This document shows positions 4,141 through 30,300 of a stretch of 64,000 nt of DNA, in pieces. This DNA is from Candidatus Woesearchaeota archaeon UBA525 (GTDB taxonomy: Archaea > Nanobdellota > Nanobdellia > Woesearchaeales > UBA525). Made by a program: the position numbers and the translations under genes. Below the pieces are notes generated by a model. It saw only the letters and a program-made list of their open reading frames with translations. It ran no database searches and was not told the DNA's origin. Where the stretch lies: assembly GCA_002498125.1 (NCBI GenBank), contig DAGG01000030.1, forward strand, positions 3 through 64,002. Direction: 5' to 3'. The stretch's first letter is position 1; each line of letters starts with the position of its first letter.

Positions 4141-4148
4141 GTAGTTTT

Positions 4149-4267: not shown

Positions 4268-4328
4268 CATGTTTTCTTACCGGAATTTCAAGGAAGTGCT
4301 TTATAAGAAACACCATCTTACCCCCTGA

Positions 4329-4802
4329 ATGGCCGCCAAGAACGATATCAAGACCACCTATGCCCAACTGGCGAAGAAACACCAGCTCCCGTCATTCGAC
4401 GATCTCAACAAGGACTTCGACATCGACGTCATCGAGGCCGGGACGAAGCACCTCGCCAAGGAGATCGCGAAGAAGGTGTTCGAACGCGTCGAGCTCTTCA
4501 AGAAGATACTAGAAACCGCACTGCAGCCCGACGTCAGCATCCTCAGCATGCAGGAATCGGAGTACCTCACAGAGAACGACCACGAAATCATCGCCGACGT
4601 GCTGCGTAGGCTCATGAAGCTCGACCGCACACTCCTCATCGCAGAGCTGGAGAACGACGACCGACTCTACGTCGGATTCATCAAGGACTCGTACGCAGAG
4701 TGGCCGAGAATAAAGAGAGAGCTCGGACCCATATTCAACCGCATGCTCGGTGGATGGAGCACGAAGCACAAGATCAAGCAGTTCCACCACTACGTGGGAT
4801 AG
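4329..4802 (+). CDS. Hypothetical protein (157 aa)
   Basis: Clean ORF with balanced composition. TTTATAAG sits 22-29 nt upstream of the ATG. No recognisable motif. Confidence 0.6.
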   Translation: MAAKNDIKTTYAQLAKKHQLPSFDDLNKDFDIDVIEAGTKHLAKEIAKKVFERVELFKKILETALQPDVSILSMQESEYLTENDHEIIADVLRRLMKLDRTLLIAELENDDRLYVGFIKDSYAEWPRIKRELGPIFNRMLGGWSTKHKIKQFHHYVG

Positions 4803-4864
4803 GCACAGGATTCTCTTTTACAGTTCTAGTCAGTCCCGTTTATAGTTAGTCCCGGTCTAGTTCT

Positions 4865-5074
4865 GTGCCGCCTTGGCATAACTCCGAAGCCTCCGCGCGG
4901 CGACCAGAGGGAGACAGCAAGGCGGAGGCTGAGACAAACCTGCATGCAGCACATGGCCGCGGCACGCAAAGTAATTCACCATCGCCTGAACAACAGCACA
5001 TTGGCCTTGCGCCGCAATGTCCGACTCTGGGAGAGACACCAAGGATCCTTTCCATAAGGAAGAGGCAGTTTTTT
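4865..5074 (+). ncRNA. Candidate structured small RNA of unknown class
   Basis: The 298-nt gap has no convincing ORF. TTTATAG at 4839-4845 lies about 22 nt upstream of GTGCCGCC. Long-range pairs: GTGCCGC 4865-4871 with GCGGCAC 4959-4965, and GCCTCCGC 4889-4896 with GCGGAGGC 4922-4929. CCGCCTTG 4868-4875 with CAAGGCGG 4918-4925 is mutually exclusive with the second pair. A terminal hairpin CCTTTCC/GGAAGAGG is followed by T6 at 5069-5074. Confidence 0.25.
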
Positions 5075-5080
5075 ATACAC
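5071..5080 (+). promoter_or_regulatory. TATA box of adk
   Basis: TTTTATACAC lies 21-30 nt upstream of ATG 5101. Confidence 0.45.
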
Positions 5081-5100
5081 TGCTTTGCGCAGAACGCAAC

Positions 5101-5712
5101 ATGAGAATCATCATCTTCGGACCGCAGGCATCTGGAAAAGGCACACAATCAGAGATGCTCGCGAAAGAGTCAGGCGTCATGCACATCAGCGTCGGCGAAC
5201 GGCTGCGCCAGGAAGCCGCCTCCGGCAGTGCGCTCGGCAAGAGGATGAAGGAGCGCATGGACAAGGGCGAGATGGTGTCCGACGATCTCGTCGAGAAAAT
5301 GATCAAACGCCTCATCGAGGAGTCAGAGGGAAAGTTCGTCCTCGACGGCTTCCCACGCACAGAGGCGCAGGCACGATGGCTTGACCTCATCACGCGGATA
5401 GACCGCATTCTCGTGCTCAGCATCTCAGACAAAACAGCGATTGAACGCATCGGGGGCCGCCGGGAGTGCGCCAAAGGCCACGACTTCCACCTCCTCTACA
5501 AGCCGCCGAAGAAAGAAAACACCTGCGATGAGTGCGGCTTGCCGCTGAAGAAACGTGCCGATGACACATCGGTCGCAATCATGAAACGCCTGCAGCTCTA
5601 CCACGAGCAGACAGAGCCCATGATCAAGCACTACCAAGACCGGATCATCACCATCGACGGCGAGAGATCTATCCCTGACGTGCACCACGCGATACTCAAG
5701 GCGCTGCGATAG
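5101..5712 (+). CDS. adk: Adenylate kinase (bacterial-type, with Cys/His LID)
   Basis: MRIIIFGPQASGKGTQ P-loop, DGFPRT motif, LID RRECAKGHDFH...CDECG. The ORF-track start at 5017 is rejected in favour of the ATG at 5101, which fits the family N-terminus and the TATA spacing. Confidence 0.9.
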   Translation: MRIIIFGPQASGKGTQSEMLAKESGVMHISVGERLRQEAASGSALGKRMKERMDKGEMVSDDLVEKMIKRLIEESEGKFVLDGFPRTEAQARWLDLITRIDRILVLSISDKTAIERIGGRRECAKGHDFHLLYKPPKKENTCDECGLPLKKRADDTSVAIMKRLQLYHEQTEPMIKHYQDRIITIDGERSIPDVHHAILKALR

Positions 5713-10914: not shown

Positions 10915-11058
10915 GGACGTGTAGCTCAGCTTGGATAGAGCACAGCACTCCTACTCCTTATGACGATCATTTCGCTATACCGGCTCGACCGGTTAAACGA
11001 GAGTTAGCCGAAGGAGAGAGTAATGCTGGGGCCGGGGGTTCAAATCCTCCCACGTCCG
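10915..11058 (+). tRNA. tRNA-Arg(CCU) with a 69-nt intron (10954-11022) at canonical position 37/38
   Basis: Manual cloverleaf. Acceptor GGACGTG/CACGTCC is perfect. D arm TA-GCTC-AGCTTGGATA-GAGC. Anticodon stem CAGCA/TGCTG. Loop CT-CCT-A|intron|A. T arm GGGGG-TTCAAAT-CCTCC. Discriminator G. The intron has internal stems (ACCGG/CCGGT, CTCCTT/AAGGAG). Confidence 0.8.
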
Positions 11059-13992: not shown

Positions 13993-14770
13993 GGTTCTTG
14001 AGGACGCGCGCTTTCTCGCGCAAGAGGTTCGTAGCATTCATCATCTGGTGGCGCAGGTTGCGCTCCTCGCCGATGACGGCGACACGTTTCTTCTTGACGT
14101 CATCGAGGAACTCCTCCCATGACTGCGACTTGGCAACGGTGAACGCCGTTCCGAGCGGCTTGATGTGGTGCCCGTCGCTGCCACCAACGATCGCCTTGTC
14201 GAACTGCATCGCCCAACCGAGCGCCGAGAGGTTCTGCTTGTGCAGCATCGTCTCATTGACGACCTCGAAGGCGTGGATGTGCCGCAGGAGGTGTCGGTTG
14301 CCATTGCTGAAGAAACGGTAGCTCCGTCGCGGCGGGACTGCGAACGGGTGCGGTAATGAGACGACGCAGTTGACGCGCCGCAACTCATCGAGAAGCTCCT
14401 CTGCAGAGATGCCTGACGCATTGCTCTGCAAACTGGTCTTGCGCTTCATGCGCGGCTTGAGCACTTTATTGTAGAACTCCTCGAGTTCTGCGACAGTGTA
14501 GAAGTAGGGAATGATATCTTTTCCTTCAGACGTGCACACCTCTATCCCCGGCCTGATGAGGCCCGGCACCATCTTGTCAGCGGCGAGCACACCTGCGATG
14601 CTGTTGTGGTCTGTAAGCGCGACACTCACGCCGAGTTCACGGCATCGCTTGACTATCGATTCGATCGGCGTTGAGGAGTCATGACTGTACTTGCTGTGGA
14701 AGTGCATGTCCACGAGCATGTAGTCCTTGCGCAGGGCCTCGACATCTGGTTTCGTGAAGTACACGCGCAT
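13973..14770 (-). CDS. PHP-domain metal-dependent phosphoesterase
   Basis: MLVDMHFHSKYSHDS, ALTDHNS and GGSDGHH motifs. Start overlaps the gatE stop. Confidence 0.8.
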   Translation of the reverse strand: MRVYFTKPDVEALRKDYMLVDMHFHSKYSHDSSTPIESIVKRCRELGVSVALTDHNSIAGVLAADKMVPGLIRPGIEVCTSEGKDIIPYFYTVAELEEFYNKVLKPRMKRKTSLQSNASGISAEELLDELRRVNCVVSLPHPFAVPPRRSYRFFSNGNRHLLRHIHAFEVVNETMLHKQNLSALGWAMQFDKAIVGGSDGHHIKPLGTAFTVAKSQSWEEFLDDVKKKRVAVIGEERNLRHQMMNATNLLREKARVLKNLRMGGR

Positions 14771-16602
14771 CAGATCATCGACCTCTCGCGTTCGATGAGC
14801 TCCATGACTCTCTTGCCTTCGGCCTTGCCGCGTGCTTTTGCCATGACTTTGCCCATGATCACGCTCGGTTTCGCATCTGGCAGTTCGGCCATGGCGGAAC
14901 GGATCGCCGCGCGTAATTCCTCGTCGGATATCGGCGCGTACCTTGAGTAATCCAGGTTGCCAATCGCGGCCTTACCCTCGGCTATCTCTACGAGTATCTC
15001 AAAAACAGCTGAACGTGGAATCTGGTTACGCATAACAGCGGCGAAGAGCGGCTCCAGGAGCGCGATATGGTCTATCTCCTTCTTGTACCTCGCCTGTATC
15101 TCCTTACCATAGGTCAGGACTGCTGTCGCGATAAATGACGGCTCCAAACTAGGGTACTTCTCAAGGTACTCGTCGAAGATGATGCCTTCGCGCACGAGTT
15201 GCTTCGCCTGGTCCTCGCTGATGCCAGATAGCTGCATGTCGCGCACCTGCTCACTGAAGAGCTTCGGTGCCTCAACGGCGCTGACGTCGATAGCGACAAT
15301 CGGAACGTCCGTTTCCGGATACATGCGTGCGGCCCCAGGCATCGGCCGCAGGAAAGAAGTTGTGCCGTCGGGGTTCGCCTTGCGAACCTCTTTTGGCACA
15401 CCGACAGCAAATTGGCGCAAGCGAGGCAGGATCGCGTCCTCAAGGAGCACCTGGATGCGCGCGGAATCACCGATAAGGAGAAGGAACGCGTCTTTTTCGC
15501 CTAACGAGAACGCATGCGATAGGTCTTCCTTGCCCACGCCGTATTTCTTCAAGTCCTCATCGCTGTGGATGAGACCGCCGAATCCTGCGCTGCGCGCAAG
15601 GTCAGCGAGCTCTGATCCGACGCGGTAGCCGCGCACGAGCTCTGTACCGAGCACGCCGGCAAAGCCGGACACCTTCACGCCGACGGCGCAATCGCCGCGC
15701 GCGAGCGCGGACTTGATGAAGCTTACTGTTGATAAGTGGAAGGCTTCGGTGACGTCGATGATGTCTCCTACCTCGACTTGCCTGAGCTTGCTCGCAAGGA
15801 CGATAAGCGACCGCTGACGCTCGGCTTCATTCTCGATGAGCGTCGCAATCATGCGGAGGTCCTGCGCACCCTTAATCTCGACACGAGTGCCGCCGGGCAC
15901 GCTGACATTCAAGTCCTGCCTGATGGTACCTAAGCCCCGCTTGACGCGCTTCGTGCTGCGCAGGAGCAGGCCGAGTGCCGCGGCGACCTCTTGGGCCTGG
16001 CTTGCGCTCGTGATATCGGGCTCTGTCGCTATCTCGATAAGCGGAATGCCGTTACGGCTGAGATTATAGATATCCTCTTCAGGTGTCCGCGCTACGATCT
16101 TGGCAGAATCCTCCTCGATGCATATCGTCTGCAGACGCACAGGGGGCGCGACCTCAGGAATGATGCCGCCGATGGCGAAGAGCCCTGTGCGCTGGAATCC
16201 CGAGACTGCGCTGCCGTCCACGATGGTCTTGCGCATGAACTGCATCATCGGGAGGACTGTGCTGCCACAGGCCTTGGCCACCATCGCCGCGGTCTTGATG
16301 ACCTCGGCATTGACAGGGCTTGGCGGCTCCTCATCGAGTTCGACGAGACAAGTACCATCATTGAACGCGTGGTAGGTGTACCGCTTCGCCTTGCGGGCCT
16401 CTGCCGCAGCAGCAGCATCGACCACGCCAGTTTCTCCTGCGCTCGCGCGCAAGCGACGCGTGACAGTGATATCAGGTTGGCGCTCGATAATGTCGGCAGG
16501 ACAGCGGCAGAAGAGCTTGGACTCTCCAGGACTGCCTGCCTGCTGGTGGATCTCGAGACCTACCTTCAGACTATCTTTTCCACCCTCAACTGCGCCTACC
16601 AT
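14770..16602 (-). CDS. gatE: Glutamyl-tRNA(Gln) amidotransferase subunit E
   Basis: KVGLEIHQQ N-terminal signature, an archaeal GatE-specific insertion and a GatB-like tail. Start set at ATG 16602, about 30 nt downstream of the minus-strand TATAAAAAT (16630s). Confidence 0.9.
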   Translation of the reverse strand: MVGAVEGGKDSLKVGLEIHQQAGSPGESKLFCRCPADIIERQPDITVTRRLRASAGETGVVDAAAAAEARKAKRYTYHAFNDGTCLVELDEEPPSPVNAEVIKTAAMVAKACGSTVLPMMQFMRKTIVDGSAVSGFQRTGLFAIGGIIPEVAPPVRLQTICIEEDSAKIVARTPEEDIYNLSRNGIPLIEIATEPDITSASQAQEVAAALGLLLRSTKRVKRGLGTIRQDLNVSVPGGTRVEIKGAQDLRMIATLIENEAERQRSLIVLASKLRQVEVGDIIDVTEAFHLSTVSFIKSALARGDCAVGVKVSGFAGVLGTELVRGYRVGSELADLARSAGFGGLIHSDEDLKKYGVGKEDLSHAFSLGEKDAFLLLIGDSARIQVLLEDAILPRLRQFAVGVPKEVRKANPDGTTSFLRPMPGAARMYPETDVPIVAIDVSAVEAPKLFSEQVRDMQLSGISEDQAKQLVREGIIFDEYLEKYPSLEPSFIATAVLTYGKEIQARYKKEIDHIALLEPLFAAVMRNQIPRSAVFEILVEIAEGKAAIGNLDYSRYAPISDEELRAAIRSAMAELPDAKPSVIMGKVMAKARGKAEGKRVMELIERERSMI

Positions 16603-16707
16603 CACAGTAGTGCCTTGACGGGCATTTTTATACTTTCCTTTGAAAAACAGGCCAATGGCGGTAATGGAGCCCTGCACGCCCCTAAATTGCATTTTCCTGC
16701 CATAACT

Positions 16708-16715
16708 CTTTTAAC
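16708..16715 (+). promoter_or_regulatory. TATA box of the sigma-like gene
   Basis: TCTTTTAA centred 26 nt upstream of ATG 16737. Confidence 0.4.
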
Positions 16716-16736
16716 ACCGCCCCGAGTCGCCTCAGC

Positions 16737-17441
16737 ATGGAGCACTGGGACCCTAGGACTAAAGAGGACTTCATCAGGGGAATGGAGGAGAAGGCGTATG
16801 ATGAGACTCTCCGTAACTGCCTCATGAGCAAAGGAGCCCATCACCAGGATCTGGACGACTTAACCCAGGACGCCTACATGCGTGCGTACAAGTACTTCGA
16901 CCTCTATGAGCCAGGCACGAACTTCAAGGCATGGCTATGCACCGTCGGCCAACGTAACATGATAAACCATCACCGCCGACGCCTCATCAAGCCGGAGGAC
17001 TTCAGCCTTGATGCGGAGAATGAGGACGGCTCTACGATGAAAGACGGGCTCTATGGGCACCACACCCCTGAGACAGACCTTGAAATGATGGAGGAGTTCA
17101 GCTACCGCCCGATCATCAGGAGAGCGATCTCTGACCTGCCGCACCAGTGGAAGATGATACTCCTCTCTACAGATATCGAAGGTCTCGGGCGTAAAGAGAC
17201 TGCGGAGCTGATGGGGTTGCCACAGGGGACTGTGCTGAGCAGCATCTACCGCGCAAAGAATCGCATACTGGATTGCCTCGTTGCCGCTTCAGAGGCGGTC
17301 GCTACGGCGGCGAGCGATGAGGAAGCTGCCAAGACATTGGCGGCGGAGTATGGGATACGCGGCGTGGCTTTGGAGAGGAGAGTCTATGACGCAGTGAAGA
17401 GAGCGCGCAGGGTCGAAGAGACAACTGAACAGGCTGCGTAG
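16737..17441 (+). CDS. Sigma-70 family (ECF-type) sigma-factor-like protein
   Basis: Region 2: DLTQDAYMRAYKYFDLYEPGTNFKAWLCTVGQRNMINHHRR. Region 4: LPHQWKMILLSTDIEGLGRKETAELMGLPQGTVLSSIYRAKNRILDCL. About 50-aa acidic/Ala-rich C-terminal extension. Confidence 0.75.
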   Translation: MEHWDPRTKEDFIRGMEEKAYDETLRNCLMSKGAHHQDLDDLTQDAYMRAYKYFDLYEPGTNFKAWLCTVGQRNMINHHRRRLIKPEDFSLDAENEDGSTMKDGLYGHHTPETDLEMMEEFSYRPIIRRAISDLPHQWKMILLSTDIEGLGRKETAELMGLPQGTVLSSIYRAKNRILDCLVAASEAVATAASDEEAAKTLAAEYGIRGVALERRVYDAVKRARRVEETTEQAA

Positions 17442-17509
17442 TTTCCACATGGAAAGCCGCTTCCCTTTCAAAGCCATCATGAGCAATTCTTTTAAACCGC
17501 ACCCGCATC

Positions 17510-19816
17510 ATGCGCACCATGGCTGAGAAAGAGATCCATCTCAAGGTAGCAGAGGCATTGCAGGACGACGTCAACAAGGGCATCGTCCGCTTCGACTCGT
17601 CATACATGAAGGAAATCGACGTCCGGCCAGGAAACATCGTCGAGATTATCGGCGAGCGCACGACTGTCGGTATTGTCGACCGCGCACTCCCCGGCGACAT
17701 CGGCCAGAACATCCTACGCATCGATGGGCTCACGCGCCGCAATGCGAAGACGACGATCAGCGAGATCGTGCGCGTACGCAAGGCGGAAGTGCAAGAGTGC
17801 AAGAAGATCACAATCGCCCCTGCGCGCAAGGGCATTATGATCCGTGCCAACCCTATCATCTTCAAGCGCGGCCTGCTCGGCCGTGCAGTGGTCAAGGGCG
17901 ACATCGTATCCCTGGGCGGCACTCGCCGTCGCAGGAACACGATGAGCGACAACCCGTTCTTCGACGAGATGTTCAGCATGCTCGGCGATGACAACATGCT
18001 CTCCTTCGGCCTGGGAGACCTCAAGTTCGTCGTGGTCGAATCACTGCCAGCGAAGAAGCCGGTGCTCATCACTGAGAACACGCAAGTAATCTTCAACCCC
18101 GAGGCTGTGGAGGTCAAGGAGGAGAAGGACATTGACGTCACGTACGAGGACATCGGTGGACTCGATGAGGAGTTGAAAAAAATCCGCGAGATGGTAGAAC
18201 TCCCGCTCAAGCACCCAGAGATCTTCGAACGCCTCGGCATCGAGCCGCCAAAAGGCGTCCTGCTGCACGGCCCTCCGGGCACAGGCAAGACGCTCCTGGC
18301 CAAGGCGGTCGCAAATGAGACGAACTCTAACTTCATCCTGATCAACGGACCTGAGATCATGTCAAAGTACTATGGTCAATCCGAGGAGAACCTGCGCAAG
18401 AAGTTCGAAGAGGCGGAGAAGAACGCGCCATCAATCATCTTCATCGATGAAATCGACGCTATCGCGTCAAAGCGCGAGGAGTCCAAAGGCGAGGTCGAAC
18501 GACGCGTGGTCGCGCAGCTCCTGACCATGATGGACGGCCTGAAGTCGCGCGGCAAAGTAGTCGTCATCGCCGCGACGAACATCCCGAACACGCTTGATCC
18601 TGCGCTACGCAGGCCTGGCCGTTTCGACCGCGAGATCGAGGTCGGCGTGCCGCAGGTCGCCGGCCGCTTAAACATCCTGAAGATCCACACGAGGAACATG
18701 CCGCTCGAGGAGAAGGGCAAGGAGAAGGTGGACCTGCAGAAAATGGCCGCGGTCACCCACGGTTTCGTCGGGGCGGACCTGAGCGCGCTCGCCAAGGAGG
18801 CAGCTATGATCGTCCTCCGCCGCGTGCTGCCGGACATCAACATGCAAGGCGATGAGGAGTTGCCCCAGGAGCTTCTGGAGAAACTTATCATCACACAATC
18901 AGACTTCCTCGAGGCGCTCAAGGTCGTACGCCCCAGCGCGCTGCGCGAGGTGCTCATCGAAATCCCGACCACGACCTATGAGGATATCGGCGGACTGCAG
19001 GATGTCAAGCAGGAGCTCATCGAGACAGTTGAGTGGCCGCTCAAGAACAAGGAGGCGTTCAAGCGCCTCGGCGTCAAGCCGCCAAAGGGCGTGCTCATGT
19101 ACGGACCTCCGGGAACTGGGAAGACACTCCTGGCCAAGGCTGTCGCGCATGAGGCAGAATCCAACTTCATCCTGGTCAAAGGACCGGAGCTGCTCTCCAA
19201 ATGGGTCGGCGAGTCTGAGAAGGCCGTTCGCAAGGTGTTCGAGAAGGCGCGCCAGACGGCTCCAACAATCATCTTCTTCGACGAGATCGATTCGATCGCT
19301 CCTCGCCGCGGAATGAACTCGGACTCGAACGTGACCGAACGTGTCGTGAACCAGCTCCTCACAGAGATGGACGGGCTGCAGGAGCTCAACGACATCGTGA
19401 TCATCGCGGCAACGAATAGGCCGGACATCTTAGATACCGCACTGCTCCGTCCGGGCCGCTTCGACCGCATCATCCTTGTACCTGTCCCTGAGAAGAAATC
19501 ACGCAAGCAAATCTTCGAAGTGCACACCGCGGACATGCCGCTCGCAAAGGACGTGATCATCAACGAGCTAGTGACAAAGACCGAAGGATATGTTGGTGCA
19601 GATATCGAGGCCGTCGCTCGCGAGGCAGCAATTCTCGCGCTCCGCGACGACATCAAGGCGACTGAGGTCAGCATGAAGTACTTTGAGCTGGCGCTTCTCA
19701 AGGTCAGACCATCGGTGACTAAGGATATCGAGCAGTCGTACAAGGAACTCGAAGGCACGTTCAAGCAGGCACGCGGACGACAGCTCGCGATGGACAAGCC
19801 GAGCTACTACGGCTGA
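17510..19816 (+). CDS. cdc48: Cdc48/VAT-type AAA+ ATPase (two AAA domains)
   Basis: N-domain KVAEA...VRPGNIVEI. Two [15 protein letters not shown] Walker A motifs, two IIF(I/F)DEID Walker B motifs, SRH regions. The ATG at 17519 fits the TATA (17488-17497) spacing slightly better. Confidence 0.95.
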
Positions 19817-19817
19817 G

Positions 19818-19838
19818 CTTTTGTTCATCCCTTTTTTC
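19818..19838 (+). terminator. T-rich terminator after cdc48
   Basis: CTTTTGTTCATCCCTTTTTT lies immediately after the stop, with T6 at 19832-19837. Confidence 0.35.
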
Positions 19839-19897
19839 ATACCTTCTAGACAATCCTAGTAAATCCTAAACTACTTCTCAGAATCCAAATGATCCAT

Positions 19898-20476
19898 CTA
19901 AGCGTGCTCAGACACAGTTTTCTGGAGCCTGTACGCATGGAGCAGCATGCCGACGTACACGATGATAAACGGAGCCACAAAGAAAAAATCATCCCGGGGG
20001 ATAAGGATTGACCAACCAGACATTCTCCAATCCACGATATTAAAGACAATGCCCAGCGCGTAAATCACCAAGGAGGTCACGAGTACCCACATCAGCCGCA
20101 GCCGGGCCATGACATACTCGTACGCATCGGGAAAGAACCTGATCCAACCCCAGGATACGAGCGTGCCTATCCCCCACCCAATGAGGAACACGGCTACGCT
20201 CAAGAGACCCAGCTCCATACCAGTCTCTAACCCCTCAGGGAAAAAAGCCGATGCGACAATCACTGCAGATGCGCCCATGATACCCAGCGTCTGGCGCTTG
20301 CCGAGCCTGAAGAGCCCTGCAGCAGCGCCACTGATAAGCGTAACCACGGGGATGATCAATGCACAGCCGAAGCATTCAGCGGACGGATGAGCATAGAGTG
20401 AATAGAGAAGAGAGATCAAGGGCAAGAAGATGAGGAACAAGAACCATGCTTGTGGGAGCCAACGAGGCACTACCAT
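19898..20476 (-). CDS. Integral membrane protein (about 6 TM), unknown function
   Basis: Hydrophobic helices throughout. CTTTTTATATTAG about 25 nt upstream on the minus strand. Confidence 0.55.
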   Translation of the reverse strand: MVVPRWLPQAWFLFLIFLPLISLLYSLYAHPSAECFGCALIIPVVTLISGAAAGLFRLGKRQTLGIMGASAVIVASAFFPEGLETGMELGLLSVAVFLIGWGIGTLVSWGWIRFFPDAYEYVMARLRLMWVLVTSLVIYALGIVFNIVDWRMSGWSILIPRDDFFFVAPFIIVYVGMLLHAYRLQKTVSEHA

Positions 20477-20547
20477 CTCTCTTCTCAGAAATCTCTAATA
20501 TAAAAAGCTGCTCGCGGCAGGCAGCTGGGCACAGAGAAGCCGCGCTA

Positions 20548-21099
20548 CTACGGCTGAGTCAACGCTTCGGCGACCGCCATCAGATCTGCGAGCCCTGCAT
20601 CATACCGTTCCACACGTATCCGCGGGTAGCGCTGCAGAGTCAGGTCTATGCGATGATCGAATCCAAAGAATGCCACGCCCACCTCTGTGCGACGCAGCGA
20701 CTTGTCAATCCTCTTGGCCACATGGATGTCGCGCATGTCACGCACCATGGCTGTGGCTGCATAGTCACCGATGAATCGTATCTGCATATCCAGGAGCTTC
20801 TCTGATTCTGTGTGCATCAACCTCGCTCCTCTATCTAGGAGCGATATCACGCAAGCGCAGTTCCTGCTCCCTTCGGCTGCCAACTCCTTGAAAGGCTGTG
20901 GCGAAGGCTTGACCACGGAGTCATGGTAGATTTTATCGAGATATTCATCCTGAAGGCGAGCGTCTATACCATCCCAGTAGCGGTCCAGGAGGCCGAGGTA
21001 CTCCGGAAGCAGGTCGGGTCTGGTGATAATTGAAGAATCGTAAATGTCTCCAAGCTCCACAGGGGCGTGGGCCGTCGGGATGTAGATGAGCCGCGCCAT
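20548..21099 (-). CDS. Hypothetical protein (183 aa)
   Basis: ORF with ordinary composition, separated by 3 nt from the upstream small gene. No motif recognised. Confidence 0.5.
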   Translation of the reverse strand: MARLIYIPTAHAPVELGDIYDSSIITRPDLLPEYLGLLDRYWDGIDARLQDEYLDKIYHDSVVKPSPQPFKELAAEGSRNCACVISLLDRGARLMHTESEKLLDMQIRFIGDYAATAMVRDMRDIHVAKRIDKSLRRTEVGVAFFGFDHRIDLTLQRYPRIRVERYDAGLADLMAVAEALTQP

Positions 21100-21102
21100 G
21101 CA

Positions 21103-21387
21103 TCACTCCCTGAACACTCTCGCGTGTTGCAGCATCAACCCTTCATCCCCCTCGAACTTCGCTGGGCAGTAGGCTGCGCTCACGACGCGAGGATGCTGGA
21201 GGAGCAGAGCGACATCGCACGCACGGCTCTGGCACATGTAGGAGTACCGACCGTCGCTGCGCACAGCCCAGGTCTCCGGCAGCATATCAAGAATGGTGAG
21301 AGCGTCTACGTTACAGATGACCTCCTCATCACCAAGGAACTCTAGCTCTGCTATGAACTCTTCCCTTGCACCCATCCCAGAACACAC
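21103..21387 (-). CDS. Hypothetical small protein (90-94 aa)
   Basis: ORF directly upstream of 20548..21099. The TATA-like CCTATAAAGG spacing favours the internal ATG at 21375. Confidence 0.4.
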   Translation of the reverse strand: MCSGMGAREEFIAELEFLGDEEVICNVDALTILDMLPETWAVRSDGRYSYMCQSRACDVALLLQHPRVVSAAYCPAKFEGDEGLMLQHARVFRE

Positions 21388-21497
21388 CTGCTCTCATCCC
21401 TTTATAGGTCTGCTGTTTTGCGTTCAAACTGCGGATTAGGCCAGGAACACCGCCGGGCCAGGAAATCTTTAAGAAGAGGCGAGGGAACGAGTAACCC

Positions 21498-22787
21498 ATG
21501 CAGGAAGGCGACAGGATCAGGTTCACATACCAGCACAAGGAGATGGAAGGAGTCCTCGTCCAGCTCAAAGACGACCATGCTACCGTCAAGCTTGACAGCG
21601 GCTACAATATTATCGTGCCTGTGGAAGAACTCACCGGCATAGAAACTGAACCACTCGAAAGAACCAAGACGCCCCCAGTCAAGGTGAAGCAGGACCCAAC
21701 ACTGCCCAAGGTTTCCATACTCCACACTGGTGGGACCATCGCGAGCAAGGTCGATTACAAGACCGGCGCTGTCGTCGCTCAGTTCAATCCAGAGGAACTG
21801 ATTGCACTCTTCCCAGAGCTATTGGAGCTCGCCAACATCGAGAGCAAGCTCCTCGCGAACATGCAGTCAGACGACATGCGTTTCGCGCACTACAACATCA
21901 TCGCGCGTGCTGTACTCGAGGAGATTAACCGCGGCGTAAAAGGAGTCATCGTCACCCAAGGTACTGACACGCTCCACTACACTGCCGCGGCGCTCAGCTT
22001 CGCGCTCGAGGGACTGAACGTCCCGGTCGTGGTCGTCGGCAGCCAGCGCAGTTCTGACCGGGGCAGCAGCGATGCCGCGACCAATCTCATGGGAGCACTC
22101 CGCTTCATCGGCGAGGGCATACCTGGTGTCTACATCGCCATGCACGAGACGAGCAGCGACGACCAAATCGCTATCATCGACGGCCTCCACGGGCGCAAGA
22201 GCCACTCGAGCCGCCGTGATGCGTTCGTGAGCGTGAACGCACCGCTGGTTGCGCGTATCCCGCCCGGCAAGGTCGAAATCATCGATGCCGCCCGCGTGGA
22301 GCAGCGGAAGAAGGCTGCTGAGCGCAAACCACGCGTCCTGCCATTCAAGGAGGACCTCAAGGTCGGCCTATGGAAGTCCCATCCGCAATCGTTCAGCGAT
22401 GAACTCGCGGTGTACGAGCACTATGATGGCCTCGTCATCGAGGGCACTGGCCTCGGCCACGCACCCATAACTCCTATTGACGAGCACACGCAGGAGCACG
22501 CGCTCATCAGAGAGCGCATCGCGAGCCTCGCCAAGCGCATCCCCGTTGCTATGACGACGCAAACCATCCACGGCAGGGTGAACATGAATGTCTACTCGCC
22601 AGGACGCAGGCTACTGGAGGAAGGCGTCCTCGGTCAAGGGTGCGATATGCCACCTGAGACTGCCTTCATCAAACTCGCGTGGCTGCTCTCCAACTTCAAG
22701 AGAGAGGAGATCGCAGTACTCTACCAGCAGAACCTTCGCGGTGAGATATCAGAACGGAGTCCCTTGGAAGACAGTCACTGCGAGTGA
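21498..22787 (+). CDS. gatD: Glutamyl-tRNA(Gln) amidotransferase subunit D
   Basis: N-terminal AD1-like beta domain followed by an asparaginase domain (ILHTGGTIASKVDYKTGAV, VIVTQGTDTLHYTAAALSF). Confidence 0.9.
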   Translation: MQEGDRIRFTYQHKEMEGVLVQLKDDHATVKLDSGYNIIVPVEELTGIETEPLERTKTPPVKVKQDPTLPKVSILHTGGTIASKVDYKTGAVVAQFNPEELIALFPELLELANIESKLLANMQSDDMRFAHYNIIARAVLEEINRGVKGVIVTQGTDTLHYTAAALSFALEGLNVPVVVVGSQRSSDRGSSDAATNLMGALRFIGEGIPGVYIAMHETSSDDQIAIIDGLHGRKSHSSRRDAFVSVNAPLVARIPPGKVEIIDAARVEQRKKAAERKPRVLPFKEDLKVGLWKSHPQSFSDELAVYEHYDGLVIEGTGLGHAPITPIDEHTQEHALIRERIASLAKRIPVAMTTQTIHGRVNMNVYSPGRRLLEEGVLGQGCDMPPETAFIKLAWLLSNFKREEIAVLYQQNLRGEISERSPLEDSHCE

Positions 22788-22804: not shown

Positions 22805-24175
22805 CTACTCGCAAGGTCGTGTCACAATCACTTGCACAGTCATGACTTTGCCGTCTTGTCCCATGATTGTGCCCAAAGACGCTATGTTATCGCTGCAGCC
22901 CACCATTGTCGCTGGAGCCTTTAGCTCACTCACGGAACGGATTGGTCCAGTGCAGCAGAGCGTGCTGTGCGTATCATTGAGGGTTTGCATCGAGCCGTTG
23001 CGCGCGAACTGGCACACTTGAGAGATGTTGGAGTTGCTGGGGAGCGTGCACCCACTCACACCAGCGCACTGATTGTAATCGCAGAACCCGCCGATGCTGC
23101 AATCGCTCTTGCACTCAGCAGGACGAAGCGTGATATTACGATACGTCTGCGTTGAGAAGAACCCTACCTGCGAGTCATACTTGGCATCATACCCTGTGGC
23201 GTTCCCTGTTAGGTTATGGTAGCCTGGTGTGATGGTGAAGTTGAAGATAGTTGTCACAGTCCTGTAGCTTTCGGTATCGATCCTCACGGAGGCCACCGGG
23301 AGCATGACGCGCGTATTCTCATCGATGACGCGCCCCTCCCAAGCAATCGTCGTAGACGTATTTAGGCACTTGCCAGTACCGCCATCTTCGCAGTAACCGC
23401 CAGTGCACGCGTCGCGTTCACCGAGCACGTAAACCGCAGACGCCGCAAGGTCCGGCGTGCTGTTGTAGGACTTAGTCTGGTTCACGATGCATGTGAAGGT
23501 CGCGTCGCCCTCAGTCATGCCTGCCGTAGGGCAGTTGAAGAACGCCTTGAGGCCAGACCAGCCAGTAATCGTGCAAAGGTTCTTCACGCCACCCTTAGAT
23601 AGAGTCGCGTTTGCGCTCTTGAGCGGCCCAGGGAAGCTACCTGCGGTGTAGGTGCAGTTCCCCTGCACTGTACCCTGCGGTCCGGCACAAGCGAAGCGAC
23701 CGCTCGCTTCAGCATTGCTGATCCCGACTTTGCAGTTCACATCGCCGCGCATCGCGGTCGTGCCACCATCATAATCCGCTTCGCCGTTACCATCATTGTC
23801 GAGGTTATCCATGCAGGAAGTCTCATCGCAGTAGCCGGTGACTGCGTTGATGGTCGTGCCGAGCGGGCACTCGCACGTCGCAGGAGCAGCGCCAGGATCA
23901 ACACAGACCCTGTTCGCGGTGCACGCGATACGGCTTGAGGTGTAATCGCAACGGTCAGTAGCCTCGTTGCACGTGCCCGCAGACGTCTGGTTCAAGCTCG
24001 TCGCGTCCCAGCAGGAATCAACAATCGTCGGGCACACCAATGGCGTCCCACCACCGCAAATGGTACCGCAAGCATTCTGCCAGACCTCATTCTCCATGCA
24101 GAATTTATTCAGCGGACTCGAATCACAAGACTGACCAGTCATGAACTTGCACACGCCACTGCAAGGAACCTCCGG
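22805..24175 (-). repeat. ~1.35-kb paralogous block shared with 27328-28670 (3' thirds of the two giant genes)
   Basis: The C-terminal ~450 aa align colinearly. 22832-22933 and 27355-27456 differ at 6 of about 102 positions by manual alignment. Confidence 0.8.
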
Positions 24176-27082
24176 GCTCGCACACGAAGGAGTGAACGTC
24201 CGGACCTGATTCGTACCCGACTGGTACGCGTAAACAGTATTCACCCAGCACGTAACCGTGTGCTGTTGGGGCAACGTCGTCGCAGGACACTGGAAACGAC
24301 CAGTATTCGCGTCGTCCCATTGCACCCACGGGCAATCAGCAGTCGCACCACCAGGATACGTAAGTGTCACACCCACATGCCATACTGGCGCAGGAGTATC
24401 ACACGTGACCTGGAACGGCTGCCCGGCCGTCACAGCAGGAACAAGCAGATTGCTCACCTGAATCGGACAACCACGATCGCCATGAGCACCAGTGCCACGA
24501 CCATCATAATCATACTCACTATCAGTCTGATCATCATCGCTGTTCAAGCACGCGTTGTTACCATCAGCGCCATTCTTCGCAGGATCCTCAAGGCACTTAC
24601 CATACGTCACACTCCACGTCGTGCCTGTGGGGCAGGAGCACACACCTTGGCCCTGGCAGGTCTTAAAACCATCAGCCTGGCAGTTTACATCAGTGTAAGG
24701 ATTAGAGCAGCCACTCGATGTGCAGGAAGACCCAGAATACTGGCGGGCCGTTGTCGTGGAGAGGCAGTAGCTCGTCGGGGTATTGCACGTCGTCTCAGTA
24801 TACGACGGAGAGCAAGCACTCTGGCCAGCAGGACAAGTACTACTCGTATAATCACGGAAGACATTACCAATACAAGTATCCGCAGGAGGATTACACGTGA
24901 GATCAGTATACGGATGCGAACAACCGCCTGCCGTGCAAGATGAACCGGTGTAATCGCGTAGTTTACCACCAACACACGTATCTGCCGGCGTGGTGCACGC
25001 GGTGTCAGTGTAAGCGGGGATGCAGGAACCACCACTGCATGACGAGCTTGTATAATCGCGGAAAGTGCTGCCGATGCAGTAATCAGCGGGCGGAGTGCAG
25101 GTCACATCAGTATACGGATGCGAGCAACCACCTGCGGTGCAGGATGAACCGCTATAGTCACGTAAGACACTGCTCGAGAGGCAGGCATCTGCCGGCGTGG
25201 TGCAAGCGGTGTCAGTGTAGTAGTTCGTACAAGAAGTCCCGCCAGCCAGGCAGGTAGCACTCGTGTAATCACGGAACGTACTACCGCTGCAGTAATCAGC
25301 CGGGAGGATGCAAGTGATGTCGGTGTAAGAAGGCACGCACGTATTCTGGCCCGCGGGACACGTCGAACTCGTGTAATCGCGAAGCTTGCCACCAACACAA
25401 GCATCAGCCGGAACGGTGCAAGTGTAGTCAGTGTACTCCGGATTGCAGGAGTCTATCCCCTCATTACACCAGCTGCTCGTGTAATCACGGAACTTCGTGC
25501 TCACACAGGTGTCTGCAGGGACACTGCAGTAGAGATCATCGCTAGTGCAGTAAGAAGTGGTCTGCCCAGGATTCACGCACTGTTCGTTCGTGGTGCAGTA
25601 GAGAGTGTCAGCACAGTCGGAGTTACTGTTGCACACAACACAATTCCCAGTGCCTGTGTTGCAGACCTGGCCGCCACCGCACTGTGAGCTGCTCGTGCAG
25701 CCAGGGCAGTCAGCGGGGCAGTTGGTCCTGGTCTCGCCAGGATTGCAGACACCATTACCACATTCCCAGCACTTATTGTCACCGCCTTCGGAGGCCCTGC
25801 GGAGGGTCACTCCTGCCTCACAGTGCAGGGCGTAATCGTTGTTACCGGTCGTATAACGGCCACCATAACCGTCAGCATAATAGGGAAACCCCGGGTCAGT
25901 GATCATGATATTGCATGCGATATCTGTGTTGGGAGGAATATTTTCAGGGCGGGGAAAAGGAGCCATGCCATCAGCACCGCAACTATTGTAGTTGCAACCG
26001 TGCCAACACCTCCCGTCATCGCAGGTGAGCCAGTACGCTGTAGGATTGCCACTCGTGTCCCATGCACGCGCATGGCAAGTGCCTCCTGCGAGTTGTGGAT
26101 AGCTCCAGGTACCGGGGCCGCTCAAGATTTTGCACTCATAAGGGGGAGTGATTGGGATGCCACCACCTATTTCGCGGCATATCTCCCCCGCGCCTGAGGA
26201 ACAGATATTACCGCAGCCTCCGCAATTGTAATCATTATTCTGCGCGACAGGGTTGCCGCCGCAACATATCTCATTGCCACCTATATTGTAATTGTTGCTC
26301 CGCGGAGTCCAGGACGTTGTGGACGTGGAGCTGTCGCACAGTTGGCAATCATTGTATGGGTTCGGGGCGCCGTCAGAGTAGCACTGTCCTCCGATAGTGC
26401 AGGTACCTGCACCGCCGCAAACGCAGGAACCGCTCTGGCAGATTGTCCCGGTGCCGCAAGAAGCGCCGTTCGCGACACAGGTGCCACCGACCATGCAACC
26501 GCTGCAGACGCAGGAACCGCTCTGACAAGTCATCCCGCTGCCGCAAGAAGCGCCGTTCGCGACACAGGTGCCGCCGACATTGCAGCTTCCGGAGGTGCAG
26601 CACAATCCTGTTCCTGCGCAGCTCGGGGGGTTGGGCGGTGTTGTTCCGCCGACATTGACGTAACCCGACTTGCACCCGCCACTGCAAGTGATACCGTTGT
26701 ACGTGTAGGAGCTACTCGGCGGCTGGTTATAGCTTCCGCACGAGTCGCCATTCCCCCAGCAGACGTCGCAGACATCCGGAGAACCGAAGGTGCAAGTACC
26801 GTCACAGGATAGCTGGCCCTGACCTCCGCAAGGAACGCATGGATATCTTGTCTGATAGCCGCAGCCCAGAGCAGTACAGCAGCTCAAGGCGTTCGCCGTG
26901 TCGCATCTTGTGCCTGCCGGGCAACTGCTACAGGCGAGAACTGCAGCGCCGCAAGCGGGATCATTGTCAACAGAATCACATACGGGCGGATCGCAAGCCG
27001 CCTCAGAAGATTGCATCGATATCAGGAAGAGAAGAGTGATGACTAGCGGACTGATGACCGGCGCCCACCCATATCTCCCCAT
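22805..27082 (-). CDS. Giant secreted cysteine-rich modular protein, paralog 1 (1425 aa)
   Basis: Signal peptide MGRYGWAPVISPLVITLLFLISMQSSEAA. Cys-knot-like modules, 8 tandem 34-36-aa units, Asp/Gly acidic loops and a carboxypeptidase-regulatory-like domain. No TM anchor. CTTTTTAAATATC about 25 nt upstream. Confidence 0.85.
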   Translation of the reverse strand: MGRYGWAPVISPLVITLLFLISMQSSEAACDPPVCDSVDNDPACGAAVLACSSCPAGTRCDTANALSCCTALGCGYQTRYPCVPCGGQGQLSCDGTCTFGSPDVCDVCWGNGDSCGSYNQPPSSSYTYNGITCSGGCKSGYVNVGGTTPPNPPSCAGTGLCCTSGSCNVGGTCVANGASCGSGMTCQSGSCVCSGCMVGGTCVANGASCGTGTICQSGSCVCGGAGTCTIGGQCYSDGAPNPYNDCQLCDSSTSTTSWTPRSNNYNIGGNEICCGGNPVAQNNDYNCGGCGNICSSGAGEICREIGGGIPITPPYECKILSGPGTWSYPQLAGGTCHARAWDTSGNPTAYWLTCDDGRCWHGCNYNSCGADGMAPFPRPENIPPNTDIACNIMITDPGFPYYADGYGGRYTTGNNDYALHCEAGVTLRRASEGGDNKCWECGNGVCNPGETRTNCPADCPGCTSSSQCGGGQVCNTGTGNCVVCNSNSDCADTLYCTTNEQCVNPGQTTSYCTSDDLYCSVPADTCVSTKFRDYTSSWCNEGIDSCNPEYTDYTCTVPADACVGGKLRDYTSSTCPAGQNTCVPSYTDITCILPADYCSGSTFRDYTSATCLAGGTSCTNYYTDTACTTPADACLSSSVLRDYSGSSCTAGGCSHPYTDVTCTPPADYCIGSTFRDYTSSSCSGGSCIPAYTDTACTTPADTCVGGKLRDYTGSSCTAGGCSHPYTDLTCNPPADTCIGNVFRDYTSSTCPAGQSACSPSYTETTCNTPTSYCLSTTTARQYSGSSCTSSGCSNPYTDVNCQADGFKTCQGQGVCSCPTGTTWSVTYGKCLEDPAKNGADGNNACLNSDDDQTDSEYDYDGRGTGAHGDRGCPIQVSNLLVPAVTAGQPFQVTCDTPAPVWHVGVTLTYPGGATADCPWVQWDDANTGRFQCPATTLPQQHTVTCWVNTVYAYQSGTNQVRTFTPSCASPEVPCSGVCKFMTGQSCDSSPLNKFCMENEVWQNACGTICGGGTPLVCPTIVDSCWDATSLNQTSAGTCNEATDRCDYTSSRIACTANRVCVDPGAAPATCECPLGTTINAVTGYCDETSCMDNLDNDGNGEADYDGGTTAMRGDVNCKVGISNAEASGRFACAGPQGTVQGNCTYTAGSFPGPLKSANATLSKGGVKNLCTITGWSGLKAFFNCPTAGMTEGDATFTCIVNQTKSYNSTPDLAASAVYVLGERDACTGGYCEDGGTGKCLNTSTTIAWEGRVIDENTRVMLPVASVRIDTESYRTVTTIFNFTITPGYHNLTGNATGYDAKYDSQVGFFSTQTYRNITLRPAECKSDCSIGGFCDYNQCAGVSGCTLPSNSNISQVCQFARNGSMQTLNDTHSTLCCTGPIRSVSELKAPATMVGCSDNIASLGTIMGQDGKVMTVQVIVTRPCE
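24680..25530 (-). repeat. Eight in-frame tandem units (102-108 bp, 34-36 aa, 4 Cys each) inside paralog 1
   Basis: Units follow C-x-x-P-A-D-x-C-x(4-5)-[FL]RDY[TS]-x-S-x-C-x(4-6)-C-x-x-x-YT[DE]-x-x. Examples are CTVPADACVGGKLRDYTSSTCPAGQNTCVPSYTDIT and CILPADYCSGSTFRDYTSATCLAGGTSCTNYYTDTA. They are visible on the plus strand as recurring GTRTAATCRCG. Confidence 0.85.
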
Positions 27083-27327: not shown

Positions 27328-30300
27328 TCACTTGCAGGGTGCAGTCACGACTACCTGCACAGTCATCACTTTGCCGTCTTGACCCATGATTGTGCCCAAA
27401 GACGCGATGTTATCGCTGCAGCCCACCATTGTCGCTGGAGCCTTCAGCTCGCTCACTGAGCGAACTGGACCGGTGCAGCAGACAGCACTATGCGTATCAT
27501 TAATCGTCTGCATCGAACCATTGCGCGCGAACTGACAGACCGGCAAGATGTTCCCATCAGAAGGCAACGTGCAACCGTTCACGCCAGCGCACTGGTTGTA
27601 ATCACAGAACCCGCCAATGCTGCAATCACTCTTACACTCAGCAATACGTAATGTGATATTATAGTAGGTCTTGTTTGAGAAGAATGGCACCTGCGAATCG
27701 TACTTTACATCATACCCGGTAGCATTGCCAGTCAGGTTGTGGTAACCTGTAATCACGTTAATGCTGAATGCTGACGTGACAGTCTGGTATGCACCCTTAT
27801 CTACCCTGACCGAACCGACAGGGATGATTGTACGGGTGTTCTCATCGAGGAGCTGTCCTTCCCACGTGACATTATTGAGGCAGATACCTGTGAGAGGATC
27901 CTCGCAGTATCCGATACTGCATCGGTCGCGCGGGCCTCCCAAGTACACTGCTGACGCCGAGAGATCCGGCGTGCTGTTGTAGGAGTTTGTCTGGTTCACG
28001 ATGCACGTGAAGGTCGCATCGCCCTTGCTCATGCCTGCAGTGGGGCACCTGAACAATGCCGTAAGGCCAGACCAGCCAGCGATCGTGCAAGAGTTCTTCA
28101 CGCTGCCTTTAGCTAGAGTGGCGTTCGCACTCTTGAGCGGCCCAGGGAAGCTGCCTGCAGCGTAGGTGCAGTTGCCCTGGACAACTCCAGCAGGACCTGC
28201 GCAGCCGTCCGTGGCTCGTGCCTCGCTAATCCCGACTTTACAGTTCACATCGCCGCGCATCGCGGTCGTGCCACCATCATAATCCGCCTGGCCGTTACCA
28301 TCATTGTCGAGGTTATCCATGCAGGACGTCTCATCGCAATAGCCAGTAGCAAGATTGATGGTCGTGCCACTCGGGCACTCGCACGTCGCGGCACTAAGAC
28401 CGGGTTGCTCACAGACCTTATTCATCGGGCAAGCCACGCGGCTTGACGTGTAATCGCAACGGTCAGCAACCTCATTGCACGTACCAACAGAAGTACGATT
28501 CAAACCAGTAGCATCCCAGCAGGAGTCGACAATTGGAGGACAAGTGTACGCATTGCCACCACCACAAGTAGTACCGCACTCATCCTGCCAAACCTCATTA
28601 ACCATGCAGAACAAATCATCGCAAGGAAGACCGGTCTGTGGCTCTTTGCAGACACCGCTGCAAGAACTGTTCGGAGGGGCGCATGAAGGAGTGAACCCGC
28701 GGGTCTGTTCGCCCTGGCCCGTGAGGTTATAGGATCTGGCATAGTTGACATAGCACCGCGCAGTATAATCCTGCGGGAACGCAGGCGCGGGGCAGTTGAA
28801 CGACATGGTGTTACCAGACCACGTAGTATCGGCGCAAGTGTACTTCGTGCCAGGCGCCGAATTGAGATAGTACTCAGCACCGATGCTCCTGAGATTCCCT
28901 ACGTTCGTCGTGCAGGAGAGCGGGAATCCAGCCCCAACAGTCGGTGCAGGAGTGCTCATGGACGCGATGCCGACCTTGCACTGGAAGTCGCCGTGTGTTG
29001 TCCCACTGTTACCATCGTAATCCTTCTCATCCTCTGTTCCATCGAAGAGATTATCGTCATTGATCGTGTTGGCGCAGTAGCTCGGATGCTCAACGCAGCG
29101 GCTGACACCTAGCCTATCCACGCCGGCAGTGGTGTTTGTAGGACAGCTCGGCGTGAAAGTCGTTGACTGATCAGTTCCTGCTTTGTAGGATTTTGCTGTA
29201 TCGACGAAGCAGGTCGCAGTATAGAGCTGAGTGTACGTGGGCGCGGTACAGTCGAATGTGATGGTGTTACCGACCCAGCTCGCTCGCGGCTCACAAGATA
29301 CTGTGCTCGGACCAGTGACGCTCACCCCGATGCTTCGAACGCCAGCAGGACTGGCGGTGCAAGTGACTGTGAATGCATCTCCTGCTCTCGGCGGCGAAGG
29401 AGAGACGCTGATGGCAGTGACTGCGACCGGACATCCGGCATCGCCCTTGACCGTCCCAGAACCGGCATAGTCGTACTCGCCGTCGCCTTGGTCATCGAGA
29501 CCACCAGTGCAAGCGTTCAGGCCATTTGTACCAGTCTTCGCGGGGTCTTCCAAACACCTACTGTACGTCGCACTCCACGTCGTACCGGTAGGACACGCGC
29601 AGGATGCGCTAGTAGGTCCAGCAGAGCCGTCGGGATCAGAGCACACCTGGTAGCCGGTGCAGGAGATGATGTTGTACGCGCAGGTGCTTGATGCTGTGCA
29701 GGTCGATGTATAGTCCTTCACGGCCGTGCTGTTATGGCAGATGCTCGGCTTCGTGCTGCAATCGCCGCAAGTGTAGGTGCCGTCGCAGCCGTCGCTCACA
29801 GTGCCGCACTCCTTCGTGCCGCACGCCTCTGACTGAGTCTTCAGGTCAGGGCAGCTCGGGTCTGTGACGCAGGATCCTCCCAGGCAGGTATAGCCTGCTG
29901 AGCACTGCAGGCCTGTGCCACAGCTCACATCAGTGCAGTGTGAAAATGGACTGGAGCTGAAGTACTCGACACCACAAGCCTTGGTCGCTGCAGAATCGCA
30001 GAGGCAAGTCTTCGGCTTGCAGAGGACCCGGATGCTATCGCATATCATGCCATAGGAAGTTCCGCCTGTGGCATTGAGGTAGTTCCTCCTTGACCCTGAT
30101 ATCTCAGGGAACCTCGAAGTATTGTCCGGTGATCCGCAGCAGACATCGTCGGCGTATATCTCCTGCTTAACGCTTGGATGCATGTTCCAGTTCATGCAAC
30201 CATAGCTTGGGCCGCCACCCGTCTCCTGGCCTGAGTATTTAGAGACGTTCAATGTGTCGTCATAAGGTTGATGCATGCTAGGATAGTAGGTGCAACTGAT

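Follow-up and report, generated by a model that had tools for sequence, protein, structure and literature searches.

Here we report that a bacterial-type sigma factor gene has become established in an archaeal genome, where it has been kept between two housekeeping genes, gatE and cdc48. The gene was found in a 64,000-nt stretch of contig DAGG01000030.1 from Candidatus Woesearchaeota archaeon UBA525 (hereafter the window), and its product is, as judged from profile, sequence and model matches, a genuine two-domain homologue of the extracytoplasmic function (ECF, group 4) type of the sigma-70 family. Sequence comparisons indicate that the gene is bacterial in origin and has been vertically inherited in at least two archaeal lineages, and it is apparently expressed from an archaeal promoter of its own. 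In textbooks, bacterial transcription initiation is set apart from that of archaea and eukaryotes by sigma factors on the one side and TBP with TFB on the other, and an intact sigma gene behind an archaeal promoter raises the question of what a sigma fold does without its polymerase. We tentatively suggest that the protein now has no role in polymerase specificity and has been co-opted as a dispensable, lineage-specific accessory regulator that would bind DNA through its sigma4 domain; this is the reading that we favour, although it falls somewhat short of being probable.

The original prediction, made from the DNA sequence, had recognized sigma-70 regions 2 and 4 in the 234-aa product. Both were recovered with profile models, all scores lying above the curated cut-offs, and the peptides that it quoted are present. 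Sigma70_r2 (PF04542) matched residues 24-82 with 40.5 bits (cut-off 24) and Sigma70_r4_2 (PF08281) matched residues 126-176 with 34.6 bits (cut-off 25.7), and the whole protein scored 69 bits against the NCBIfam sigma70-ECF model TIGR02937 (cut-off 42.9). There was no Pfam match to Sigma70_r3; only the region 2 and region 4 models matched, so that the protein has neither region 1.1 nor region 3. None of the NCBIfam equivalog or subfamily models reached its cut-off for this protein, the best being the SigH model TIGR02947 (79 against 251.55 bits). A sequence search of the PDB returned Mycobacterium tuberculosis SigH first (5zx2_F, 1.6e-16), followed by Escherichia coli sigmaE (3.5e-13).

The predicted structure agrees with these matches. 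An AlphaFold2 model built from a 115-sequence alignment has a mean predicted local distance difference test score (pLDDT) of 82.8, with about 95 in both domains. All 25 of the 25 Foldseek matches in the PDB at E < 1e-3 are ECF sigma factors, M. tuberculosis SigH being the nearest, and the sigma4 domain superposes at a root-mean-square deviation of about 1 Å on region 4 of E. coli sigmaE with -35 DNA (2h27). It is on the profile scores, the PDB search and these AlphaFold2 and Foldseek results taken together that we regard the product as a genuine ECF-type sigma homologue. The original prediction had also described a C-terminal extension of about 50 aa as acidic. The extension does exist, with 53 residues, but its charge is mixed (10 acidic and 8 basic residues, net -2), and that of the orthologue described below is net basic; the acidic stretch of the protein is instead the linker between sigma2 and sigma4, with a net charge of -10 over residues 85-122. 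In the model a helix continues into the extension as far as residue 193, followed by helices at 195-205 and 210-233 (pLDDT 61-86). Pfam gave no match for the C-terminal extension of either orthologue, and PADLOC gave none for the window sigma protein and its unannotated neighbours.

The surroundings of the gene are archaeal, as the original prediction had held from the gatE and cdc48 flanks: Pfam confirms GatE and Cdc48 and, in addition, GatD at 21498-22787. Other genes of the window include those for SMC, RNase HII, the cysteinyl- and valyl-tRNA synthetases (CysRS, ValRS) and TruD, together with a glycogen cluster. Two tRNA genes, at 10915-11058 (+) and 38997-39106 (-), match the 71-position Rfam model from end to end although they measure 144 and 110 nt, and presumably therefore carry introns; ARAGORN missed both. 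Neither bacterial RNA polymerase (RNAP) genes nor a second sigma gene occur within the window. The best named relatives of its GatE are all annotated as Candidatus Woesearchaeota archaeon (61%, 55%, 51% identity and below), and the Woesearchaeota metagenome-assembled genome GCA_013331575.1 has its genes in the same order as the window, LPG-synthase / unknown / PHP / GatE / Cdc48. We therefore take the host to be a Woesearchaeota-related DPANN archaeon (Nanobdellati), a placement made on one marker, GatE, and on gene order.

An exhaustive phmmer search of 1.8 billion representative proteins yielded 19,370 sigma relatives, of which a single one, P0029, aligned over nearly the full length of the window protein (residues 4-225), so that both a W-[DN]-P-x-T motif at the N-terminus and the C-terminal extension are covered. 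P0029 lies on a 56.7-kb contig (L004) that comes from another sample, and it recurs in two further assemblies from different samples. Its gene is divergent from gatE, which together with gatD forms its direct neighbourhood, with PHP and Cdc48 genes close by, and TATAAA lies 24.5 nt upstream of its probable start, the ATG of M18. The P0029 model shows the same architecture as the window sigma and a confident fold, with C-terminal helices at 189-207 and 210-239. Between the window and L004, identity is 90% for Cdc48 (765 aa), 67% for GatE, 65% for both GatD and PHP and 56% for a protein of unknown function, against 32% for the sigma protein, and the residues kept between the two sigmas cluster in the sigma motifs and in the C-terminal helices. 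The segment running from cdc48 to gatD (window 17519-22787, L004 10739-14999) lies inverted in one genome relative to the other, with the sigma gene still beside gatE; on L004 the sigma gene and gatD converge and overlap by 36 nt. In a neighbour-joining tree of 73 representatives the two archaeal sigmas are sisters in 96 of 200 bootstraps, and because of this low support the inferred orthology rests mainly on shared position and shared termini.

A word-indexed search of 5.8 billion clusters with the sigma protein gave nothing above 33% identity, and the sole match in a scan of GTDB genomes was a Rhizorhabdus ECF sigma (28% identical). A profile made from both orthologues found no third member, scores dropping from 444-502 to 123 bits, so that two family members in all were found among about 15 billion proteins. 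A scan of metagenome contigs with the two-sequence alignment gave 67 loci, all of them ordinary bacterial ECF genes and none with GatE or Cdc48 neighbours. Two N-terminal matches from that scan, L012 and L017, were considered as relatives and rejected: both are bacterial, and L017 is adjoined by a zinc-finger anti-sigma gene. A scan of viral contigs found no relative and thus gave no sign of a virus-borne origin.

With this orthologue at hand, the idea that a bacterial fragment was joined to an archaeal contig during assembly or binning can hardly be credited. Nothing except the bacterial affinity of the protein family speaks for it, whereas the gene sits on one contig at 44-134 nt from gatE (depending on the gatE start) and 77 nt from cdc48, and two pipelines agree on the arrangement, the independently made ENA and JGI assemblies containing an identical contig of about 76 kb. 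The gene is ameliorated to the composition and codon usage of its host, with a guanine-plus-cytosine content of 56.3% (window 56.6%) and a codon-adaptation index of 0.633 (0.656 +/- 0.063 for the remaining window genes), and it stands behind an archaeal TATA promoter. Chimerism, which the original prediction had judged unlikely, is excluded by the identical ENA and JGI contigs together with the syntenic orthologue of another organism on three further, independently assembled contigs.

A TATA-like box had been predicted about 26 nt upstream of the ATG and the promoter called archaeal; the box is indeed there, centred at -26.5, with a spacing that recurs throughout the window. Of 41 window genes, 15, among them the sigma gene, are preceded by a TATA-like hexamer centred between -28 and -24 from the start codon, and as the chance level for such a hexamer in a nine-position window is about 0.9%, this geometry is not due to chance. 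The stereotyped distance from TATA box to start codon across the window implies that host mRNAs are mostly leaderless and made from TATA promoters, a pattern to which the sigma gene conforms; its own mRNA would be leaderless or nearly so.

Homologue alignments and the presence of a TATA box about 26 nt upstream were also used to correct the starts of both neighbouring genes. The real start of gatE is probably M31 (ATG at 16602, minus strand), the open reading frame (ORF) call at 16692 being too early: the alignment of the window and L004 GatE proteins begins at residue 12 of the M31-shortened protein, and a TATA box, TATAAAAA, is found at 16625-16632 on the minus strand, inside the gatE-sigma spacer. 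With gatE starting at M31, that spacer would be 134 nt long and would hold two divergent TATA promoters. For cdc48, which has its own TATA box TCTTTTAAA at 17488-17496, the real start is probably the ATG at 17519 and not that at 17510. The coordinates of the locus are collected in Table 1.

Table 1. Features of the sigma gene and its flanks (window coordinates; domain limits from the predicted structure).
Feature	Position	Strand	Description
ECF-type sigma-70-family gene	16737..17441	+	ATG start, 234 aa plus stop codon; ORF list, Pfam, TIGR02937, AlphaFold2, Foldseek
Predicted sigma2 domain, residues 9-84	16761..16988	+	Four helices, pLDDT about 88-96; DLTQDAYMRAY (region 2.2), TNFKAWL (region 2.3)
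Predicted sigma2-sigma4 linker, residues 85-110	16989..17066	+	Disordered, pLDDT 46-70, without secondary structure
Predicted sigma4 domain with helix-turn-helix, residues 111-181	17067..17279	+	pLDDT about 93-97; recognition helix GTVLSSIYRAKNR
Predicted C-terminal helical extension, residues 182-234	17280..17438	+	Mixed charge; common to orthologue P0029
TATA-like box TCTTTTAA	16707..16714	+	Centred 26.5 nt upstream of the sigma ATG
gatE (Glu-tRNA(Gln) amidotransferase subunit E)	14770..16602 (mechanical ORF to 16692)	-	Pfam GatB_N, GatB_Yqey; probable start
cdc48 (AAA+ ATPase)	17519..19816 (mechanical ORF from 17510)	+	Pfam CDC48_N and two AAA domains; probable start

Phylogenetic footprinting of the gatE-sigma spacer, window against L004, revealed no conserved block and no palindrome. 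The SigR/SigH motif GGAAT-N17-19-GTT occurs three times, against 3.26 expected, and at no place upstream of the sigma gene, a chance-level result that gives no sign of the ancestral promoter specificity; a scan for sigma-70-type promoters between 14000 and 21000 gave four matches, where shuffled sequence gave 2.3 +/- 1.9, and so no clear excess. The promoter regions of the sigma gene and cdc48 (16701-16736 and 17483-17518; TCTTTTAA..CCGC..CCCG) are marginally the most similar pair in the window. A derivation of the sigma promoter by duplication of that of cdc48 was considered and found to be unsupported, as this top-scoring pair reaches 8 where others reach 7.

The ancestry of the gene can be traced in outline. 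Its nearest bacterial representatives, P0026-P0028 (96-104 bits, about 33-37% identity), share with the archaeal sigmas a W-D motif at the N-terminus and a tail of the form 'YA..YG(Y/I)' at the C-terminus. After the gene of P0028, the nearest of all (L079 2444-3904), come those of an 80-aa zf-HC2 anti-sigma and of a peroxiredoxin (AhpC/thioredoxin fold), an arrangement that is the canonical SigH/SigR-RshA/RsrA thiol-stress module. Named matches ranking lower with the two-orthologue profile come from Armatimonadota, Acidobacteriota and Planctomycetota. These comparisons indicate that the sigma gene is bacterial in origin, with its closest relatives among SigH/SigR-type factors that work with a ZAS anti-sigma. 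The original prediction had proposed a phylogeny as a route to the donor clade; at 30-37% identity the donor itself cannot be named. The statement that no anti-sigma gene is adjacent stands, and can be widened: gatE and cdc48 flank the window sigma and gatE and gatD flank P0029, the ZAS/zf-HC2 motif is present in no real gene of the window, and phmmer detected no anti-sigma-domain match in any window ORF.

To describe what has been kept of the bacterial protein, we used the 62 alignment columns with at least 60% agreement among 113 bacterial relatives. The window sigma matches 48% of them, the lowest value of 115 sequences, and P0029 matches 60%, compared with a bacterial mean of 82% that is somewhat inflated since the consensus was drawn from those very sequences. 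Region 2.2, which in bacterial sigmas contacts the beta' coiled-coil, keeps D41, L42 and Q44, and region 2.3 keeps T61, N62, F63, A65 and W66; D41, L42, Q44 and W66 stand in columns with at least 98% conservation among the bacterial sequences. In sigma4, L134 and P135 are kept, as are G164, T165, S168 and R172 of the recognition helix. The changes in the window sigma are A39L, N73R, R139K, L144S, Y152R, R169S and R174K, and four of them (R169S, R174K, Y152R and L144S) fall in columns whose conservation in bacteria is 97% or higher, an arginine of the -35 recognition helix being among the residues replaced. Most of the residues changed in the window sigma are still present in P0029, and the window copy is therefore the more derived. 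The region-2.2 motif D-L-x-Q-[DE] and the region-2.3 tryptophan are kept in both orthologues despite their 32% identity. Judged by the identities given above (32% against 56-90%), the sigma gene changes at about double the rate of any of its neighbours.

It is this survival of motif and tryptophan at such low identity that lends some weight to a true sigma-like factor, in which sigma2 would sit on the clamp coiled-coil of Rpo1N (A') and recognize or melt a subset of promoters, with TFB/TFE or replacing them. The Rpo1N clamp coiled-coil, to which TFE and Spt5 bind, is structurally homologous to the beta' coiled-coil of bacteria. The sigma2 fold as well as the sigma4 fold is predicted at high confidence in both orthologues, and DPANN archaea are without TFE-beta (PMC7289017), which could leave room for an accessory clamp binder. 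Yet the gene is missing at the locus in five close relatives (see below), which argues against a core factor; the residues of the -35 helix and of region 2.4 are drifting, and the promoters of the window show ordinary TATA geometry with no bipartite -35/-10 signal. We consider such a factor unlikely. Similarly, we find it rather improbable that docking of region 2.2 on the archaeal clamp makes a working hybrid of bacterial and archaeal initiation, in which the fast-evolving sigma4 helix, along with the C-terminal extension, would have adapted to other targets.

The distribution of the gene among relatives points to an accessory role. In P0294, L007, L008 and L011, cdc48 and gatE are directly divergent, or split by a phosphatase gene alone, and have no sigma gene between them; in a fifth relative, L009, another gene lies upstream and the locus is again without a sigma gene. 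The GatE proteins of these relatives are 72% (L009), 71% (P0294), 65% (L007), 63% (L008) and 61% (L011) identical to that of the window, and tblastn of both sigmas against the five loci was negative. On the GatE tree, L009, P0294 and L007 fall between the two lineages that carry the sigma gene. The simplest history would be one insertion into the gatE-cdc48 spacer with later losses, and it is because of this insertion-then-loss distribution that we regard the gene as accessory.

A non-functional or decaying relic of horizontal transfer, whether transcribed or not and in the course of being lost across the clade, would account for several observations: the sigma gene is the fastest-evolving gene of the syntenic block, its product has the lowest conserved-column match of the 115 sequences, five related lineages have no copy of it beside gatE, the searches described above found two members of its family, and it has neither an anti-sigma partner nor a cognate polymerase. 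However, frames of 234 and 240 codons are still open across a distance at which GatE is 67% identical, where neutral sequence would gain stops or frameshifts. Both copies keep a correctly spaced TATA box, conservation is centred on the sigma motifs and the C-terminal helices, both proteins model confidently, and codon usage is fully ameliorated. Decay is therefore, in our view, not the likely explanation, though it is one to be taken seriously.

Kept core-binding residues and fast evolution could, in principle, be reconciled in yet another way, namely by an effector that, once delivered to a bacterial partner, would attach to the core RNAP of that partner and redirect its transcription; a high rate of change suits a gene engaged in conflict or host interaction. 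We regard this as very improbable. The protein has no signal peptide and no transmembrane segment, no secretion genes are close by, and the gene is placed among housekeeping genes; moreover, near-invariant residues of working bacterial ECF sigmas have been lost, and the scan of viral contigs for relatives was negative. In the DPANN episymbioses that PMC8204110 describes, the partners are other archaea.

The account that we favour runs as follows. In the ancestor of a small Woesearchaeota-related DPANN clade, a bacterial ECF gene was gained between the divergent genes gatE and cdc48. The ZAS anti-sigma partner of its bacterial relatives is missing beside the archaeal copies, and the gene has taken on the composition and codon usage of its host together with an archaeal TATA box. 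Co-opted as an accessory regulator, the protein would act by analogy with Tfx and Bat: DNA would be bound through the sigma4 helix-turn-helix (HTH), and the two-helix C-terminal extension may give oligomerisation or regulation. That the protein is most likely no longer a specificity subunit is suggested by three things: a bacterial core is not expected in the host, the ancestral control module has been lost, and the residues that recognize DNA show drift. Some points nonetheless weigh against this proposal. Free ECF sigmas are generally poor at binding promoter DNA without core polymerase. Residues of the core-binding type (D41, L42, Q44 and D/E45) and the region-2.3 tryptophan are kept in both orthologues, and a plain HTH regulator would not obviously need them, although they may simply hold the fold. 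The patchy distribution and the fast evolution also fit decay. Finally, the absence of bacterial RNAP from the cell is an assumption, 64 kb of the genome being covered.

Several other genes of the window and of L004 deserve mention. Neither Pfam nor PADLOC matched either of two tandem giant ORFs on the minus strand (22805-27082 and 27328-31647; 1425 and 1439 aa). At the C-terminus both share 27-31% identity with the C-terminal part of an 859-aa ORF on L004 (15113-17692), and they may be lineage-specific surface proteins. The glycogen/alpha-glucan cluster (56722-63893, minus strand) comprises an amylo-alpha-1,6-glucosidase (GDE_C), DUF5752, GH57 and GT4/GT5 glycosyltransferase genes and includes a eukaryote-type glycogen synthase (PF05693, 453 bits), a storage-polymer capacity that is notable for DPANN archaea. 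A UvrD-family helicase (41075-43192, plus strand) carries an N-terminal RQC and a C-terminal HRDC domain, an unusual RecQ-like accessory set on a UvrD core. Bacterial-type signalling is represented in the window by a PAS-histidine kinase (33531-34754, plus strand) without an adjacent response regulator. On L004, the region 322-5472 encodes an MCP-like/HAMP protein, acetate kinase and an XFP phosphoketolase, so that bacterial-type signalling and metabolism are found in the clade.

We know of no mechanism that has been proposed for the sigma genes of Woesearchaeota since they were reported in 2021. The locus described here offers a tractable case, with two diverged orthologues, a defined insertion site, SigH/SigR ancestry, a lost anti-sigma and a list of kept and lost contacts, and it points to the interactions of interest: with the clamp coiled-coil, between sigma4 and DNA, and in self-association by the C-terminal helices. 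If the protein did bind the archaeal RNAP, the interface between sigma and the beta' coiled-coil would be transplantable across domains of life; if it is an HTH regulator or is decaying, it would be an ordinary case of the heavy bacterial gene flow into DPANN archaea.

Sigma-70-classified genes (fam00359) are already on record in DPANN archaea and were found to be 'particularly prevalent in Woesearchaeota' by Castelle et al. 2021 (PMC8204110), who excluded mis-binning, reported that anti-sigma factors were not found and described the mechanism of control as unclear. This earlier publication lowers the novelty of the original prediction, not its correctness: apart from the charge of the C-terminal extension, the parts of it that could be checked were borne out. 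As far as the published description allows a comparison, the fam00359 genes and the window gene are alike: in both cases a bacterial-type sigma-70 gene lies on bona fide Woesearchaeota-type contigs without an anti-sigma gene, and archaeal basal factors are assumed to be present. To that report the present analysis adds the site of insertion, a pair of syntenic orthologues, the geometry of the promoter, an ancestry among SigH/SigR-type sigmas with ZAS partners, the relative speed at which the gene evolves and an inventory of kept and lost residues.

Among characterized systems, M. tuberculosis SigH-RshA and Streptomyces coelicolor SigR-RsrA (PDB 5zx2/5zx3) are the closest to the window protein, providing its best sequence and structure matches and sharing the arrangement of sigma2, a short linker and sigma4. 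In contrast to them, the window gene has no ZAS anti-sigma or thioredoxin/peroxiredoxin gene beside it and an archaeal TATA promoter in place of an autoregulated GGAAT-N18-GTT promoter; its product has a longer helical C-terminal extension and carries N73R, Y152R, R169S, L144S and R174K, and its host is, as far as known, without a bacterial core polymerase. An extra C-terminal segment in a sigma factor that has no adjacent anti-sigma gene recalls ECF41, ECF42 and the CorE-type ECF44. In those groups, which also lack an adjacent anti-sigma, the segment fused to sigma4 regulates in cis and consists of SnoaL-like, TPR or Cys-rich domains, whereas the extension of the window protein, with its 53 residues in two or three predicted helices, matches no Pfam model, and a regulatory role for it is conjecture. 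Within archaea, Tfx and Bat/HTH_10 are regulators with a sigma-region-4-like HTH (domain lists, PMC5413776). They provide a precedent for the use of a sigma4-type HTH as an ordinary regulator alongside the archaeal basal machinery; yet they have no sigma2, while the window protein keeps a complete sigma2 domain, confidently folded in the model and with its conserved motifs.

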